64,000 nucleotides of DNA from NCBI GenBank assembly GCA_001898255.1, contig MKTK01000010.1:95896-159895 (forward strand), written 5' to 3'. Positions 463 through 30,347 of this stretch are shown here, in pieces. The stretch comes from Chryseobacterium sp. 39-10. Its GTDB lineage: Bacteria > Bacteroidota > Bacteroidia > Flavobacteriales > Weeksellaceae. Numbering within the stretch: position 1 is the first letter of the stretch; every line of letters begins with the position of its first letter. The position numbers and the translations under genes were made by a program. The notes under the pieces are model-generated. The model worked only from the letters and a program-made list of their open reading frames with translations, made no database searches and was not told the origin of the DNA.

Positions 463-2742
463 ATGGAAACACAAAAGTTTAGTTATGACAACAGCATTGT
501 GCGCGCATTCCTTTATGCAACTGTAGTATTTGGCTTGGTTGGATTTTTATTAGGGCTTACTGCAGCATTGATGCTTTTCTATCCCGAACTTCCTGAATAT
601 TTCCTCGGAACAGATGATGTTACCATCAAGAGTTTACAGAGTGGGAATCTGCAGGGGTTGATCAACTCGCATGGCGCATTTGGCTTCGGCCGTATCAGAA
701 TGCTGCATACCAGTGCGGTTATTTTTGCATTTGTTTGTAACGGTTTCTTTGCCGGTGCATATTATTCATTGCAACGCCTGCTAAAAACAAGAATGTGGAG
801 TGACACGCTTTCTTGGATCCACTTCTGGGGATGGCAATTGATGATCGTTGCAGTAGTAATCACCTTTTTGATGGGTATTAATACTTCAAAAGAATACGCA
901 GAACACGAGTGGCCAATCGATATTTTGATTACGGTGATCTGGGTGGTCTTTGGCGTCAATATGATGATGACGATCCTGAACCGAAGAGTACGCCACTTGT
1001 ACGTTGCCATTTGGTTCTATCTAGGAACTTGGGTAGCTATTGCCATGCTTCATATCTTCAATAACCTTGAAGTTCCTCTATCCTTTACCGGCTGGAAATC
1101 CTATTCCGCTTATGCTGGGGTAAAAGATGCTTTGGTACAGTGGTGGTATGGCCACAATGCAGTAGCTTTTGTACTCACCACGCCTATTCTGGGATTGATG
1201 TATTATTTCTTACCGAAAGCTGCAGATCGACCAGTATTCTCCTATAAGCTTTCTATTATTCACTTTTGGTCCCTTATTTTCGTATATATCTGGGCAGGTC
1301 CACACCATTTGCAGTACACTGCTATTCCAGGTTGGGCTCAGGCGCTGGGAACCGGTTTCTCCATCATGCTGATTGCACCATCTTGGGGTGGAATGCTGAA
1401 CGGACTTCTTACGCTGAGAGGTGCGTGGGATAAAGTGAGAGAAAATCCTGTATTGAAATTCTTTGTTGTTGCTGTTACCTGCTACGGTATGGCGACGTTT
1501 GAAGGGCCAGTGTTGGCTACCAAAACATTAAATAAAATTGGACACTTTACCGATTGGGTAATCGGGCACGTACATATTGGTGCATTGGGTTGGAACGGAT
1601 TTATCACATTTGGTATGATTTACTATCTACTTCCTATCATGTGGCGAACCAAACTTTGGTCCACAAAATTGGCTAACTGGCATTTCTGGTTGGGAACACT
1701 GGGTATTATCTTCTACGCAGTTCCTCTATACATCGCCGGCTTTACCCAAGGTTTGATGTGGAAACAATTTAACCCAGATGGTACCTTAGTTTATAAAAAC
1801 TGGTTAGATACAGTAACCGCCATTATACCTTATTACCAAATGAGATTTGTAGGTGGGTTACTTTATATATCGGGCGCAATTCTGATGTGTATTAACGTTG
1901 TAGCAACCGTAAGAAGCGGATCTTTCCAAAAAGAAGTTCCTGCGGAAGCGCCTGCACTTGCTAACATTTCACCACAGAGAAAAGCAGGAGAAGGATGGCA
2001 TTTATGGTTGGAAAGAACCCCTATCCTTCTTACAGTACTTTCCTTTGTAGCGGTAGCAATCGGTGGTTTCATTGAGATTGTACCCACTTTAACTATCAAG
2101 GATAATGTACCTACCATTGCAGCAGTGAAACCCTACTCACCATTAGAACTGGAAGGGCGTGATTTGTATATCAGAGAAGGATGTAATGCTTGCCATACGC
2201 AAGTTTTAAGACCATTCCGTGACGAGGTAGTACGTTTCAATGGTAAAAATGGACAGTACTCTAAGGCAGGAGAATTTGTTTATGACCGACCTTTCCTTTG
2301 GGGCTCCAAAAGAACCGGTCCGGATTTGCACCGTGAAGGGGGTAAAAACCCGAGTTCATGGCACTACAAACACATGCTGAACCCAAGAGTAACTTCCGCA
2401 GGATCCATCATGCCCCGTTATCCTTGGTTGATTGCCAACGATCTCGACAGAAGCAAAATGGTGGCTAAAATTGAATTAATGAAAAACGTTTTTGATGTTC
2501 CTTACACCAAAGCCGAAATTGATTCTGCCAACCAGTGGGCTGATAATCAGGCCGCGCACATCGTGAAGCAAATCTACTCCGAAGCTGCCGACGTGAAGCA
2601 AGCGTATGCTGAAAGAAAAGCAGCACAAGGTGCATCATTTACACCATTAGAGAAAAAAGAAATCATTGCTCTAATTGCTTACCTACAGCGACTAGGAACA
2701 GATATTAAAACCACTGAAATTAAAACGGCCAGTACCAACTAA
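463..2742 (+). CDS. ccoN: cbb3 cytochrome c oxidase subunits I/II fusion (CcoNO)
   Basis: Heme-copper oxidase motifs WWYGHN, GPHH and GHVH; C-terminal CcoO with CNACH and SKRTGPDL. Confidence 0.98.
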   Translation: METQKFSYDNSIVRAFLYATVVFGLVGFLLGLTAALMLFYPELPEYFLGTDDVTIKSLQSGNLQGLINSHGAFGFGRIRMLHTSAVIFAFVCNGFFAGAYYSLQRLLKTRMWSDTLSWIHFWGWQLMIVAVVITFLMGINTSKEYAEHEWPIDILITVIWVVFGVNMMMTILNRRVRHLYVAIWFYLGTWVAIAMLHIFNNLEVPLSFTGWKSYSAYAGVKDALVQWWYGHNAVAFVLTTPILGLMYYFLPKAADRPVFSYKLSIIHFWSLIFVYIWAGPHHLQYTAIPGWAQALGTGFSIMLIAPSWGGMLNGLLTLRGAWDKVRENPVLKFFVVAVTCYGMATFEGPVLATKTLNKIGHFTDWVIGHVHIGALGWNGFITFGMIYYLLPIMWRTKLWSTKLANWHFWLGTLGIIFYAVPLYIAGFTQGLMWKQFNPDGTLVYKNWLDTVTAIIPYYQMRFVGGLLYISGAILMCINVVATVRSGSFQKEVPAEAPALANISPQRKAGEGWHLWLERTPILLTVLSFVAVAIGGFIEIVPTLTIKDNVPTIAAVKPYSPLELEGRDLYIREGCNACHTQVLRPFRDEVVRFNGKNGQYSKAGEFVYDRPFLWGSKRTGPDLHREGGKNPSSWHYKHMLNPRVTSAGSIMPRYPWLIANDLDRSKMVAKIELMKNVFDVPYTKAEIDSANQWADNQAAHIVKQIYSEAADVKQAYAERKAAQGASFTPLEKKEIIALIAYLQRLGTDIKTTEIKTASTN

Positions 2743-2767
2743 ATTCATCATCTAAAGCAATATTCGA

Positions 2768-2965
2768 ATGATACCACAAAGCGTAAAAGATATTTTGGCC
2801 AATGGCGACAATGTCGGGTTATACCAAACCGTTGCGCTGATATTATTCCTCATCTTTTTTCTGGGAATCGTGTATTGGGTGATTTCCCGGCCCAAAAAAT
2901 ACTATGATGAGGAAGCGAATGCCCCTTTAGACGATGACATTAAAGATAAAGACGAGCATCTTTAA
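2768..2965 (+). CDS. ccoQ: cbb3 oxidase subunit CcoQ
   Basis: 65 aa, one TM helix, ANAPLDD tail, between ccoNO and ccoP. Confidence 0.88.
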   Translation: MIPQSVKDILANGDNVGLYQTVALILFLIFFLGIVYWVISRPKKYYDEEANAPLDDDIKDKDEHL

Positions 2966-2984
2966 TTATAAAAATTAAACTTTT

Positions 2985-3863
2985 ATGAAACCAAGAACAC
3001 CCATTTACATTACCATAGCAATCATCTTCGTGATTCTGTTCATCGTGTATTATATGTTTGTACAGAACGCAACATTTCTGTCTTCTCCTTATTTCTGGGG
3101 AACGGTTGTAATCAGCGTTATCCTTGCATTAATCCACAGCGCAATTGGTGATTTGATTGAGAATGATAAATTTAAAAAACTTTCCGCAGCCGAAAAAGAA
3201 GAATACCTTAACAGTAAAAAAGTTCCGTACTTTAAATCGCTGTACGAAAGTGCATTTAAAAAGCAATCCAGCACAGAAGAAAAAGATATTCTTATCGACC
3301 ATGGATTCGACGGAATTATGGAATTAGACAACCAACTTCCAAAATGGTGGCTAGGTCTATTCTGGTTTGGCGTTTGTTATTGTGTCGTTTACCTTATGTC
3401 TTATGGCTTGACCGACTTTGCCCACCAAGGAAAAGAATATGATGAAGAATACAAAGCGCAAACAGCAAGCATCGCTGAATACATGAAAAACACACCTCCT
3501 CCAACCATTGACAATGCAGTGTATTCTGCAGATAATATTGCAGCTGGTGAAGAAGTGTTTAAAACCAACTGCGTATCTTGTCATGGCGATGGTGGTAAAG
3601 GAGGAATTGGGCCAAACCTTACTGATAATTATTGGATCAACCAACCAGAAAAAACCCTATTCAAAAATGTATTCCACATGGTTGAAGATGGATCACCCAA
3701 TAACCCGACCATGCAAGCTTGGGGCAAAAACGGAGTGTTGACCGGATTCGACATTCAGAATGTGGCAGCTTATGTTTACCACATCAACCAAGAACAGTCT
3801 CCCATAACCACAGCACAAGGTGGTGCAGCTCCACAAGGAACTGAGGCACACTGGGAAAAATAA
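2985..3863 (+). CDS. ccoP: cbb3 oxidase subunit III CcoP
   Basis: HGFDGIMELDNQLPKWW motif and a single CVSCH heme site. Confidence 0.95.
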   Translation: MKPRTPIYITIAIIFVILFIVYYMFVQNATFLSSPYFWGTVVISVILALIHSAIGDLIENDKFKKLSAAEKEEYLNSKKVPYFKSLYESAFKKQSSTEEKDILIDHGFDGIMELDNQLPKWWLGLFWFGVCYCVVYLMSYGLTDFAHQGKEYDEEYKAQTASIAEYMKNTPPPTIDNAVYSADNIAAGEEVFKTNCVSCHGDGGKGGIGPNLTDNYWINQPEKTLFKNVFHMVEDGSPNNPTMQAWGKNGVLTGFDIQNVAAYVYHINQEQSPITTAQGGAAPQGTEAHWEK

Positions 3864-26211: not shown

Positions 26212-27585
26212 ATGCAGAAACTTCGATTTTCGCGATATTTCAAAGTTATTTTTATACTCCTCGATATCATCGTCATCGCAGGAGTTTTTCTATATTTCTT
26301 TTTAAAAAACAACGAGTTTAAATACGACCATGATATTTGGGAACAAAACATGCTGTCCTTGGCTCTGCTGGGCTTTTTTTGGATTCTTTTAAGCGGCAGA
26401 ACGCGGCTATACTCCATTCCTCGTAACTTAACGTACACCATTTATCTGGAACGTCTGGTGACGCACATTTTCATCTTTATTTTTGGCGTTGTATTGTTGG
26501 CCAAAGTGAGCAACAACAGCTTTCTGAAAGAAGATCGGTTTATGATTGCGCTCAGCTTATTGTTGCTTTTGTTTATACTAAAATCTTTGCTCTTCTTTAC
26601 GCTTAAATATGTCAGAACTTTGGGAATTAACCACCGAAATGTCATGTTTTTGCGCGAAGATTCTTCCACTGAAATATTGAGAAATATCCTGAACGAAAGG
26701 AAAGATTATGGTTTTAAAATTTTTGATTATCCTGACGAAAAGAAAATTGATTTCGAGAAACTGACCCTATTTTGGGAAGAAAATGGCATCCACACGATTT
26801 ACCTATCGAACGAAGCTGTCTCATTACCAAAAAATGAGGAACGGGAACTTTTTCGGCTTGCCGATTTGCACAAGATTAAAATATCGCTCGTTCCCAGCAT
26901 CCTGAAAAATAACTTTTTCCAGTACGACATTGCATACATTGAGACTCAACCTATTTTGGTGCGTGCCAAATTTCCTTTAGATTTTCTTACCAATGCTGTT
27001 CTCAAGAGAACCTTCGACATCCTCTTTTCCATCGCCGTTTTAGCAGGTGTTTGCAGCTGGCTCTTTCCTATCATCGCTTTGCTGATTATGATTGACAGTA
27101 GAGGTTCGGTTTTCTTCCTTCAAAAAAGGTATGGCTACCATGACCAGGTTTTCAAATGTTTCAAATTCAGAACGATGTATGTGAACAGTGATGCCGCGAA
27201 TAAAACTACCGAACACAACGACAAACGCATCACACCATTAGGAAAATTTCTGCGAAAAACCAGTATTGATGAACTTCCTCAATTCATCAATGTGCTGATA
27301 GGTGAAATGTCGGTGGTGGGCCCAAGACCTCACATGCTTCTGGTGGACGATTTCTATAAACCAAAAATCGGAAGATATTTTGTGCGAAGCATGGTAAAAC
27401 CTGGAATTACAGGGCTGGCTCAGGTAAACGGACTTCGGGGAGATTTTGGCGATATGAATATTGAAATGCACAAAAGAATTCTTGCGGATGCATTTTATGT
27501 AAAAAACTGGACCATCAGTTTGGATCTTGTCATCATCCTCAAAACCATTTTTCTGGTAGTGCGCGGCGATAAAAATGCCATATAA
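26212..27585 (+). CDS. Undecaprenyl-phosphate sugar phosphotransferase (WcaJ-like)
   Basis: KRTFDI, FKFRTM, DELPQFINV and VKPGITGLAQV motifs. Confidence 0.92.
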   Translation: MQKLRFSRYFKVIFILLDIIVIAGVFLYFFLKNNEFKYDHDIWEQNMLSLALLGFFWILLSGRTRLYSIPRNLTYTIYLERLVTHIFIFIFGVVLLAKVSNNSFLKEDRFMIALSLLLLLFILKSLLFFTLKYVRTLGINHRNVMFLREDSSTEILRNILNERKDYGFKIFDYPDEKKIDFEKLTLFWEENGIHTIYLSNEAVSLPKNEERELFRLADLHKIKISLVPSILKNNFFQYDIAYIETQPILVRAKFPLDFLTNAVLKRTFDILFSIAVLAGVCSWLFPIIALLIMIDSRGSVFFLQKRYGYHDQVFKCFKFRTMYVNSDAANKTTEHNDKRITPLGKFLRKTSIDELPQFINVLIGEMSVVGPRPHMLLVDDFYKPKIGRYFVRSMVKPGITGLAQVNGLRGDFGDMNIEMHKRILADAFYVKNWTISLDLVIILKTIFLVVRGDKNAI

Positions 27586-27936
27586 AGCATAATGAAATGA
27601 CCTGATTCAGCGTGTTAAGAATGATTACTATCTGCTTTTCTCGGAGTTATGGCTTTAATTTCTCCTTATAATAATCCCAGATTTTTTGACGATTTTTAGC
27701 GGAATGATGCTTGTTGATTGAATTTTATTCACTCTTAGGATTTCCAAAAACTTTCCTGAAAATAAGAAATTTTGCCTATTATTTCACTGTCATACCCTAA
27801 AATAGGTTGACTTTTTTGGGTTAAAAATAAGGTTTAGCTTAACGATCTAAAAGTAGAAATTTTTTGACAATGACAGCATAAAGTAAGAAGTTTATGAGCA
27901 GCTTCGGCGAAATAGGCCAAATACTTCAACTTGCAA

Positions 27937-27970
27937 TTTCTCCCGCAATTTGCCAATACATGTTAGCAGA
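27937..27970 (-). repeat. attC-like half-site (copy 2)
   Basis: 32/34 identical to 28961-28994; on the minus strand it begins TCTGCTAAC 6 nt after the stop of 27977-28426. Confidence 0.8.
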
Positions 27971-27976
27971 TGGTTT

Positions 27977-28426
27977 TTAATGAATTTTAGAAAAATATCT
28001 TCTGATAATGTCAGTTTTTCCGTCATTGTCAACATCTTGAGATCTGTCTTCAAAAACCAATTCATTTTCTGTTAGTTTTGTTATAAAATAGGGATAATCC
28101 TGCTCATTTTCATACCAAAATTTCATATTGGCTTTGTCAAAAGTATAATTTCTTGAACTTACTTCTCCAGTTAATTGACAACTAGAACCAACTATTCCGT
28201 AGAAAGTTGATTTATGTACAGTTCCCAAAAATTCGTGAATTGATTTTTTATCACAATCACTCTTTTCAATTGTTTGAGTTTGATTAGTTGCGGACTTAAC
28301 GGCATCCACTTTTTGAAAACTCCATTTCCCAATTAAACTTGCCTCGATTTGCTGATTTCCATTTTCGTCACTTCTGCAAGAAGTGAAGATAAAAAACGCA
28401 GGTAAAATTATAAGTATTTTTTTCAT
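27977..28426 (-). CDS. Lipocalin-like lipoprotein (cassette cargo)
   Basis: Lipobox FTSC, LIGKW and ITKLTENELV motifs; AT-rich. Confidence 0.8.
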   Translation of the reverse strand: MKKILIILPAFFIFTSCRSDENGNQQIEASLIGKWSFQKVDAVKSATNQTQTIEKSDCDKKSIHEFLGTVHKSTFYGIVGSSCQLTGEVSSRNYTFDKANMKFWYENEQDYPYFITKLTENELVFEDRSQDVDNDGKTDIIRRYFSKIH

Positions 28427-28770
28427 TTTCCGACAGGTTCATTTTTAATATATGCAGGAAGTATAATTGCAATGGTAATTCCACCAACAATTAAAGGAAT
28501 TGTTTTCCCTGCACTAAATTTTAAAACTTTATTGATGCTATTTTTTTCGATTTGAATTTCTTTTCCTTCTTGATTTCCAATGATTGAATTGTCATCATTT
28601 CCTAAATATTCAAATTGTCTTATTTTATTTCCGTCTTTGGTTTGAATGATATATTTTGAATTTGTTTTCAAGACAGAGTAATCGTAGTTATTCTTGGAAC
28701 TGACTTTTGTGGAAACACATGCGTTTAAAAATAGAACACTGGAAAATAATATTAACGCTTTGATTTTCAT
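28423..28770 (-). CDS. Hypothetical lipoprotein with C-terminal TM helix (cassette cargo)
   Basis: Lipobox LNAC; ATGA overlap with the next gene. Confidence 0.78.
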   Translation of the reverse strand: MKIKALILFSSVLFLNACVSTKVSSKNNYDYSVLKTNSKYIIQTKDGNKIRQFEYLGNDDNSIIGNQEGKEIQIEKNSINKVLKFSAGKTIPLIVGGITIAIILPAYIKNEPVGK

Positions 28771-28796
28771 TTATTTGACTGATTCTTGAAAAGCTT

Positions 28797-28994
28797 TCTG
28801 CTAACGGAAAAAGTATTGGCGAAGTGTGGGTTTAATTTGAACGAATATTCAAGTTCATACCGAACGGAACCGATGCTTTTTTAATGAAACTAAGTTATCA
28901 AAAAAATGTGAAATTGAAAAATATTGGCGGCTAAATATTTCTAATTTTTTGATTCAACACTTTCTCCCGCATTTTGCCAATACATTTTAGCAGA
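28797..28994 (-). repeat. Full attC-like palindrome (198 bp)
   Basis: Terminal TCTGCTAAC/TTTAGCAGA boxes plus 18-bp arms 28813-28830 and 28966-28983. Confidence 0.8.
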
Positions 28995-29215
28995 AGGCGT
29001 CTTTTATTCTTGTGCTCCTTTTAGGCCAATTAATTCAAGATTTGGTGGTAGATAAACACAACTATACGAAAGTTTTCACACCTACAATGAGAATAACATG
29101 TATAACTTAATCCATTGTATATCAGTAAATAATAGTTATTTTCTCGATTCGCATTTTGTGTTTAACAGAAATAAAATGCCATATTTGTTTGGTAATAGTT
29201 AATCCGTTTTGCGCC

Positions 29216-29338
29216 ATGGTTTTTTCTCATCATGATTTCTCTTTTGGTACACATCATGCCAAAAACATTATTTTTTTTCGTTTTGCGTACGACACTACTT
29301 TAATTCAAGAGCTACGGAAAAGATGGTCTTATTACTAA
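29216..29338 (+). pseudogene. Putative N-terminal remnant of a Bacteroidota tyrosine recombinase
   Basis: MVFSHHDFSFGTHHAKNIIFFRFAYDTTLIQELRKRWSYY*. Similarity is from recall only; orientation is divergent from the cassette. Confidence 0.5.
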
Positions 29339-29594
29339 TTGAACTCTAAATCATCGTACTGAAATTATGGACCCCATTCGCACCCGGCATGCATCCTCTC
29401 TTTGAACCTTTAAAAAAAAATATAAATGGTATCAATGGTGAACCAAAGACCGGTAAAAGGTTATAAAAAAATAACATTCTGAAACCTTGACAAATTTTCT
29501 TTCTGCGTGATATTCTAAAAAAATTCTTCTGTTGAGTATGATAAAAATATCACTTAAAAAACACATCAAAAAATAAAAACACTAATTTAGCGGA

Positions 29595-30347
29595 ATGTTT
29601 AAAAAACTGTTGCACGAAATTGGTGCCTATTTCCTGCTATTATCAAAAACACTCAAAAAACCGCAGAAAACATCGGTGTTCATGAAACTACTGATGAGGG
29701 AAATTTACGATTTAGGCGTTAATTCCTTTGGCTTGGTTTTGTTCACTTCCGTTTTTGTGGGTGCGGTAGTGGCCATCCAAATGTATAATAATTTTAATGC
29801 CAGCAGCTTCCCCATTCCGAACTCATTTATCGGCTATGCCACCAAAGTAGTTCTTATTCTGGAATTTGCGCCCACCATTATTTCGGTTATCCTTGCCGGA
29901 AAAGTAGGTTCATACATCGCTTCAAGTATTGGAACCATGCGGGTTACGGAGCAAATTGATGCCTTAGATATTATGGGCGTCAACTCTCCTAATTTCCTCA
30001 TCATGCCCAAAATTATTGCCAGTGTCATCTTTAATCCTTTGCTCATCGCCATCAGCATCGTCTTCGGAATCTGGGGCGGATATCTTGCAGGGATTGCGAC
30101 CGGCAACTGGAGTCAGGCCGACTATATTCGAGGAATCCAGATGTATATGCCGCAACATTTTATTTGGTATGCATTTTTCAAAACTGCTGTTTTTGCGTTT
30201 ATTATTGCCACAGTTCCGGCTTATTTTGGATACAATGTAAAAGGCGGCTCCTTGGAAGTGGGACGCGCAAGTACCCAGGCAGTAGTGTGGACCATTGTAG
30301 CAATCATTATCATGAATTTACTTTTAACCCAAATGTTCCTCAGCTGA
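29595..30347 (+). CDS. mlaE: MlaE ABC permease
   Basis: EFAPT, IGTMRVTEQIDALDIMG and GRASTQAVV motifs. Confidence 0.93.
   Translation: MFKKLLHEIGAYFLLLSKTLKKPQKTSVFMKLLMREIYDLGVNSFGLVLFTSVFVGAVVAIQMYNNFNASSFPIPNSFIGYATKVVLILEFAPTIISVILAGKVGSYIASSIGTMRVTEQIDALDIMGVNSPNFLIMPKIIASVIFNPLLIAISIVFGIWGGYLAGIATGNWSQADYIRGIQMYMPQHFIWYAFFKTAVFAFIIATVPAYFGYNVKGGSLEVGRASTQAVVWTIVAIIIMNLLLTQMFLS

Follow-up and report, generated by a model that had tools for sequence, protein, structure and literature searches.

The DNA analysed here, a 64,000-nucleotide stretch of the Chryseobacterium sp. 39-10 genome (contig MKTK01000010.1, positions 95,896 to 159,895, hereafter the window), raises the question of how a block of 1.97 kb lying directly after the stop codon of a wcaJ-like gene, and before mlaE, came to hold the stub of a recombinase gene, two overlapping lipoprotein genes and long imperfect palindromes. 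A reading made from the letters of the window alone (the sequence-only reading) had proposed a decayed, integron-like cassette layout. We consider it highly probable that the block derives from an integron-like gene-cassette platform, native to the Flavobacteriales and other Bacteroidota, of which it is a small and decayed copy. An intact platform would comprise a gene for a 355-amino-acid (aa) Xer/IntI-like tyrosine recombinase and, 140-300 bp upstream, an attI-like site with the core AAC-NNNCAAATATACG (here and below the hyphen marks the crossover point). From there a cassette array would be read away from the recombinase, with an imperfect palindrome of about 200 nt after each cassette in the role of attC. 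The evidence that carries this proposal is an exchange of short boxes between neighbouring palindromes, a conserved attI core, and arrays that end at the recombinase.

The 198-bp palindrome of the window, at 28795-28996, is one copy of a genome-wide family of about 50. Iterated nhmmer searches of the organism's own assembly (3.07 Mb in 41 contigs, labelled C below) returned 53 non-overlapping matches, 29 of them full length, and a covariance-model scan returned 39 sites. These copies are strongly clustered: contig C9 (13 kb) holds 12, spaced by 0.5-2.4 kb, shorter runs lie on contigs C25, C16, C26, C13, C12, C8, C36 and C39, and many small contigs terminate within a copy. All sites of a run share a single orientation, and every intervening gene, of which there are one to seven between neighbouring sites, lies on the opposite strand, with the cassette stop codon a few bases from one site end and the next start codon 25-50 nt from the other. 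The sequence-only reading had called for a covariance-model scan of relatives; run across the genus, it detected sites in 40 of 41 genomes, at 2 to at least 58 copies each. Three closed genomes (G050, G040 and G041) possess one co-oriented array apiece, of 130, 85 and 38 kb, and in each of them the recombinase gene occupies the side and strand that were predicted, at a distance of 1.7-2.3 kb from the last site listed (Table 1). The expected association of the palindrome with variable gene content is seen in co-oriented arrays of unrelated genes.

Alignment of the sites reveals a conserved left end, (T/C)AAC, and a conserved right end, GTT(A/G), each with a variable box beside it. When 27 neighbour pairs were scored, the right box of one site proved complementary to the left box of its successor in 24, and the count rose to 26 once two anchor errors had been corrected by eye against the alignment; shuffled partners yielded a mean of 1.85 and a maximum of 8 in 2000 trials. 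The complementarity extends over 15 nt and includes, at position 11, a fixed G that faces a T. Within a single site, the two boxes pair in 4 of 25 cases. Since neighbouring boxes are complementary and a site's own boxes are not, the crossover can be placed in the conserved GTT/AAC core. As read from these sequences, the swap of boxes is the outcome of an integron-type core crossover, in which the outer box moves with the neighbouring cassette. The same statistics bear on the proposal that the palindromes are selfish non-autonomous repeats inserting after genes, either miniature inverted-repeat transposable elements (MITEs) or repetitive extragenic palindromes moved by their associated transposase (REP/RAYT), with the arrays as favoured landing zones. 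Imperfect palindromes in many copies per genome, together with one Y1-type transposase gene (C7:53100-53447), would suit such elements. That gene is far from any array, and the ends of a copy pair with those of neighbouring copies rather than with each other. In addition, orientation relative to genes is identical at every copy seen, and in many genera it is a tyrosine recombinase with a conserved attI core that stands at the end of the arrays. The alignment of site flanks showed no target-site duplications, although these were not the object of a dedicated search. Because of the box statistics and of the place where the only Y1 gene lies, the MITE or REP-RAYT reading was rejected, and we accord it next to no credence, in agreement with the sequence-only reading, which had named a MITE as the outcome that would overturn it.

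At the recombinase end of the arrays, 25 of 37 loci, drawn from many genera, have a junction with the consensus [variable box](T/C)AAC-NNNCAAATATACG, which precedes the start codon by 140-300 bp. The box at this junction pairs with the right end of a site lying 0.5-7 kb upstream at 11 of 16 loci, in different genera. Recombinase and cassettes are divergent in the window, on C26 and in G050, G040, G041, G001 and G005, so that the site, like the attI of classical integrons, lies beside a divergent integrase gene and is joined by the first cassette. Upstream of the recombinase stub of the window, homology with the C26 counterpart stops, after 166 bp, at a TAAC-like motif. Two comparisons give evidence, at the sequence level, of exchange at the core. 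A 7.2-kb segment of seven genes (C26:79555-86783) and the related C16:41-6644 share the end boxes GTTATATGCAATGC and GCACTGCATATAAC, the former segment lying between attI and a site and the latter between two sites, and their homology begins exactly at GTTA. Between contig C1 and genome G001, recombinase and attI are 99.7% identical over 1.9 kb, the identity stops exactly at the AAC of the core, and the first cassettes beyond it differ; no partner site for the first cassette of C1 was found in the assembly. The gene pair of the window is represented at high identity in only one other genome of the 41, G005, where homologues 65-66% identical, in the same order, occupy the position of first cassette at a recombinase-less attI core. 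Such a distribution fits a mobile cassette.

The block itself is an insertion, since wcaJ and mlaE are only about 43 bp apart in relatives: this was the case in 18 of 18 same-genus genomes checked, all of which lack the block. The sequence-only reading had set as its counter-case relatives with the same fixed genes in this interval, which were not found, and had rightly described the block as AT-rich, its G+C content being 27-33% where the flanks have 40-47%. An imperfect 19-bp direct repeat, identical at 15 of 19 positions (79%), flanks the insertion, which may indicate that the whole small platform was inserted as a unit. The repeat, and the start of the insertion exactly at the wcaJ stop codon, could also be those of a small integrative island of which only a remnant is left, its recombinase having served only for insertion at the wcaJ 3' end and the layout being incidental. 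The repeat is only 15/19 identical, the same recombinase family heads arrays of 38-130 kb, and the conserved upstream core is the very junction where the first cassette changes between genomes. We therefore regard such an incidental layout as very improbable; an island-like insertion is in any case compatible with a cassette platform, which may have moved as a whole.

Eighteen sites were rebuilt as they would be in an excised circle, the left 15 nt being taken from the next site. In this form 33 pairs are predicted, of which 19 show compensatory changes; the AAC/GTT cores are invariant, as are three G·U pairs, and a fourth wobble is present in 16 of the 18. When six sites were folded, the rebuilt form was better than the array form by 9-12 kcal/mol, and the strand opposite the genes was better by 0.6-8 kcal/mol. 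The full site of the window folds at -30.8 kcal/mol (z = -3.6 against shuffles). Folded on the strand opposite the genes, sites of this family contain an asymmetric internal loop; extrahelical bases could not be clearly seen in them. On the coding strand, the G·T wobbles would turn into A·C mismatches, so that selection appears to act on one folded ('bottom') strand. A scan with Rfam of the window from 27000 to 30000 and of locus L001 from 2300 to 3600 returned sub-threshold hairpin noise only and no real family. From these sequence features, a mechanism can be hypothesised. The strand opposite the genes would fold into a long hairpin, whose parts are a 15-bp outer stem that ends in AAC/GTT, the asymmetric internal loop, and another stem, of some 19 bp, in which the fixed G·T wobbles lie. 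The recombinase would then cleave in the AAC/GTT core, and strands would be exchanged with another folded site, resulting in excision, or with attI, resulting in insertion.

The recombinase stub in the window matches the N-terminus of an intact 355-aa paralogue (C26:78326-79393) with 78% identity over 37 aa (tblastn E = 3e-12), which makes it a true remnant, as the sequence-only reading had supposed of this truncated open reading frame (ORF). A second intact paralogue, C1:1194-2264, is 56% identical to the C26 protein. Members of the family combine PF00589 with a SAM_4 N-terminal domain, the latter being typical of integron integrases. The best NCBIfam matches all remain below cut-off (XerA_Arch, 202 bits against 220; TIGR02249, 187 bits against 265), and the match to TIGR02249 omits the central segment of that model, at about positions 180-240. 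In the alignment with IntI4 (2a3v), residues ~214-247 of the latter have no counterpart, and the C-terminal SPLD tail is common to both proteins. A classical IntI integrase carries the IntI-specific domain and reaches the curated model, and this recombinase does neither. A structure model built from 19 homologues (mean predicted local distance difference test score, pLDDT, of 81) matches IntI4 first (E = 7e-15) and XerA next. The first ~80 residues make up an extra N-terminal domain, in which residues 1-60, conserved across the family, are modelled as strand-strand-helix-strand-strand-helix (mean pLDDT ~88); a fold search of this domain among solved structures gave no significant match (best E = 0.74).

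Folding and recombinase also bear on another explanation, in which the sites are recombined as double-stranded DNA at short inverted cores, in the manner of pdif modules, and the palindrome has a different role, for instance in transcription termination or mRNA stability. In favour of this explanation, the recombinase has no IntI insert and is no more distant from archaeal XerA (133 bits) than from IntI4 (114 bits); the box swap, which locates the crossover, is silent on whether the DNA was folded. Four conserved G·T wobbles on one strand and compensatory changes along 33 pairs point instead to selection on a folded single strand, and a non-palindromic attI facing palindromic cassette sites is the asymmetry of integrons. 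We consider recombination of unfolded cores unlikely. With moderate confidence, we incline to the view that Bacteroidota own a widespread integron-type lineage whose recombinase acts on folded hairpins of ~200 nt without an I2 domain, and the family-specific N-terminal domain may do the job of I2 instead.

Homologues of the recombinase with 51-79% identity are distributed over Epilithonimonas, Bergeyella, Cloacibacterium, Moheibacter, Zobellia, Winogradskyella, Chryseobacterium, Kaistella, Myroides, Empedobacter, Flavobacterium, Cytophagales, Chitinophagaceae and Balneolaceae, and a Chlorobiota metagenome-assembled genome has a partial match covering the C-terminal 86 residues. Nine of those homologue loci have sites of the family upstream, in the same orientation. 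A phylum-wide search at E <= 1e-60 gave a tally of 88/401, which is not the distribution of this system, since at that threshold the family is mixed with shorter Xer-like proteins; a full-length match of at least 49% identity was present in about 7 of 400 sampled genomes.

Within the window, the parts of the platform can be recognised in order (Table 1). The two attC-like sites of the sequence-only reading were both recovered, one in full and the other as a right half only, as were the attI-like zone, 87% identical to that of the C26 paralogue, and the two overlapping genes between the sites, which overlap by 4 nt and both begin with lipoprotein-type signal peptides. A 21-nt arm motif, TTGCCAATACATNTTAGCAGA, occurs at 27950-27970 and 28974-28994, two matches where 0.01 would be expected in the window. 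The full site has the left box TCTGCTAAC (28797-28805) and the right box TTTAGCAGA (28986-28994), and the terminal box of the partial site, GTTAGCAGA (27962-27970), adjoins the stop of the cassette's last gene, the presumed crossover half being missing. The boxes around the two-gene cassette, GTTAGCAGA and TCTGCTAAC, remain complementary. The cassette-like spacings reported earlier, 6-9 nt and 26 nt, were borne out: 6 nt separate the stop at 27977 from the box at 27962-27970, 26 nt the box at 28797-28805 from the ATG at 28770, and 9 nt a possible stop (29004-29006) from the box ending at 28994. What had been described as a start-less gene end is a remnant of only 57 nt (28995-29051), situated between the full site and the attI-like junction.

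Table 1. Features of the inserted block, in window coordinates, and arrays of three closed genomes, in the coordinates of each genome.
Feature	Position	Strand	Remarks
Direct repeat, left copy GATAAAAATGCCATATAAA	27568-27586	+	Last 19 nt of wcaJ-like gene; homology with 18 relatives ends here
AT-rich DNA, distal insertion end	27587-27787		Absent from relatives; no match in genome or fetched loci
Insertion-sequence (IS) end remnant, ~80 bp	27788-27870	-	72-79% identical to C38:178118-178202, C13:7436-7512, C14:775-852 and C24:58884-58962
Partial attC-like site	27879-27969	+	Right half only, profile positions 108-200 (nhmmer)
Cassette gene, 149-aa lipoprotein, lipocalin-like domain	27977-28426	-	Pfam PF13648, E = 1.1e-5
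Cassette gene, 115-aa lipoprotein	28423-28770	-	No Pfam match
Full attC-like site	28795-28996	+	nhmmer 166.8 bits; covariance model 173 bits; + strand is the folding strand
attI-proximal cassette remnant	28997-29051	-	Without complementary left box; homology with paralogue upstream region starts only at 29052
attI-like and recombinase promoter region	29052-29215	+	87% identical over 166 bp to C26:79395-79559
Recombinase remnant, 40-codon ORF	29216-29338	+	37 family N-terminal codons, then three unrelated codons and stop
Insert DNA after recombinase remnant	29339-29539		No match found; absent from relatives
Direct repeat, right copy GATAAAAATATCACTTAAA	29540-29558	+	wcaJ-mlaE spacer homology of relatives resumes just after
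G050 array	1,200,871-1,331,493	+	Recombinase 1,333,255-1,334,292 (+)
G040 array	194,832-280,506	-	Recombinase 191,482-192,528 (-)
G041 array	853,535-891,571	-	Recombinase 850,815-851,861 (-)

The window copy is decayed in five ways. Its recombinase gene is cut to 37 family codons; its attI core is mutated, reading GATAA-ACACAACTATACG against the consensus TAAC-NNNCAAATATACG, with the C missing at the crossover point and one core substitution; its first cassette is reduced to 57 nt; one site is a half-site; and an IS end abuts on it. The C13 copy of this IS end overlaps, and slightly passes, the 3' end of an IS3-like transposase ORF, and the remnant in the block probably marks the deletion that removed the other half of the adjoining site. 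Of the site that follows the two-gene cassette, the crossover half is gone; by analogy with integrons, the cassette is therefore probably frozen in place, despite two intact recombinases in trans. In genome G005, contig C4 (~121,300-127,000; locus L089) shows at least six sites followed by a well-preserved attI core, CACAGATAAC-TCTCAAATATACG, after which the recombinase gene is absent; this array is a second kind of decayed platform.

Several points weigh against the cassette-platform reading. The recombinase is without the segment that classical integron integrases need for folded sites, and the fixed G·T wobbles may also stem from an RNA transcribed from the strand that holds them. The evidence for exchange is comparative. 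Which neighbouring site moves with a cassette is judged by analogy with integrons and from a single, moderately strong comparison. A promoter serving the cassettes was not identified, and the 19-bp repeat at the ends of the block, being imperfect, could be due to chance.

Among known systems, the sedentary chromosomal integrons, for example of Vibrio cholerae, and integrons in general are similar in their layout, in the logic of their sites, in the position of the crossover and in strand bias. They have a tyrosine recombinase gene divergent from, and beside, a non-palindromic attI, arrays of tens of co-oriented, mostly small cassettes of mixed or unknown function, and an imperfect palindrome with AAC/GTT cores after each cassette; crossover in the core hands the outermost box to the next cassette, folding is better on the strand opposite the genes, and the C-terminal SPLD tail of IntI is shared. 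The recombinase described here differs in the absence of the IntI-specific insert (the I2 helix region) and in its extra N-terminal domain. The sites differ as well: they measure about 200 nt and have fixed G·T wobbles and an outer stem of 15 bp, whereas the usual attC has 57-141 nt and extrahelical bases; the VCR-type attC sites of Vibrio cholerae measure roughly 120 nt. The suggestion of the sequence-only reading that the sites belong to a distinct, long class is upheld by their length, and the recombinase fails the integron-integrase model. Only one complete integron was reported in Bacteroidetes with IntegronFinder 2.0 (PMC9024848).

The rAID-1 (recombinase-associated acquired interbacterial defence) clusters of Bacteroidales resemble the platform in their Bacteroidota host, Xer-like recombinase, low-G+C array and repetitive intergenic motifs. 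They were described as an XerD-like tyrosine recombinase with a low-G+C array whose intergenic repeats are 'reminiscent of integrons', the mechanism of array formation being stated as unknown and close homologues of the recombinase being reported only in Bacteroidales (10.1101/471110; PMC12247911). By that description they are set apart, since the rAID-1 array is downstream of and co-oriented with its recombinase, whereas here the two diverge from a shared attI. Cassettes of rAID-1 encode orphan immunity proteins; none of the ~20 cassette proteins scanned here matched a known immunity family, and roughly half had no Pfam match. The pdif modules of Acinetobacter plasmids are likewise mobile gene modules bounded by inverted Xer-type recombination sites, but these are double-stranded sites of 28 bp on which the housekeeping XerC and XerD act (PMC7399989). 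They lack an attI, long hairpins, a dedicated recombinase adjacent to an array, and a uniform gene orientation.

With regard to content, cassette products include a Fic protein, a DUF2268 protease-like protein, two short-chain dehydrogenases, a low-molecular-weight phosphatase, a GNAT acetyltransferase, type IX secretion tail proteins and a CPCC protein. About half of the cassette proteins have no Pfam match; many of these carry signal peptides, and many are small secreted proteins or lipoproteins. Sedentary integrons hold a similar mixture. In the organism's own genome (G000), a two-gene cassette (C9:3638-5938) encodes a GmrSD_N/HNH nuclease and an EcoRI-like adenine methyltransferase (431 bits), and the pair has the look of a cassette-borne restriction-modification or defence module. 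Nearest attI in Empedobacter stercoris CIP110833T (L025, 3750-9840) are cassettes for an APH-family phosphotransferase, an ABC-F-like double ATPase and two LinB-like nucleotidyltransferases; the APH, ABC-F and LinB-like families include antibiotic-resistance enzymes. At the end of two related large cassettes lies a conserved non-coding stretch, about 150-400 nt long (C26:86360-86783 and C16:6250-6644; also L001:2555-2950), composed of short tandem-like repeats (ATTCTT..CGATTGTAA) and then a G+C-rich part, with no Rfam match. Upstream of it lies a gene for a conserved protein of 242-249 aa with the motif SEVGHAKNVAN, which belongs to no known family.

Other observations concern the sites and arrays themselves. 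'Mini' sites (G000 C7:18031-18157, L002:1620-1752, L073:3338-3470 and L075:6309-6445) keep both arms (profile ~1-70 and 140-200) and are without the central 70-90 nt, so the centre of the site may be dispensable. On C39 (976-32473), a prophage-like element of ~31 kb inside an array begins at the GTTA end of a site. Besides lysis-type genes and an excisionase-like gene, it carries an integrase of its own (405 aa; C39:1211-2428). A giant cassette was considered for this stretch and rejected, as the flanking boxes are not complementary (GTTATTACA versus TCTGCTAAC); it looks like a separate element inserted at the site end. Locus L001 (CALFXE010000265.1), from a bin named 'uncultured Paludibacter sp.', encodes a recombinase 100% identical to C26:78326-79393 and has the site spacing of C26; the label may be wrong, or the bin may contain the same organism as the source.

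Integrons are the textbook gene-capture system and are thought to depend on the extra domain of IntI (I2) for single-strand recombination. They are also thought to be nearly absent from Bacteroidota. Our full-text literature searches found no published description of the system proposed here. If the proposal is true, recombination of cassettes through hairpins arose, or persists, without the extra domain of IntI, and a second, independent system would be available to test how a tyrosine recombinase reads folded DNA. The platform would also explain many fragmented assemblies and 'hypothetical' islands in Flavobacteriales. Its cargo may include resistance-type genes, as exemplified by the APH-like, ABC-F-like and LinB-like cassettes of Empedobacter stercoris. 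In that species, a divergent 'xerD' was reported beside tet(X14) and no integron was found (PMC7473080); platforms of this kind may be the explanation for such unexplained 'xerD' genes beside tet(X) variants. The copy in the window is a dead remnant, whose value lies in having been the entry point and in exemplifying how a platform decays. If the proposal holds, the Flavobacteriales would possess a native reservoir and assembly line of accessory genes that is invisible to standard integron finders.

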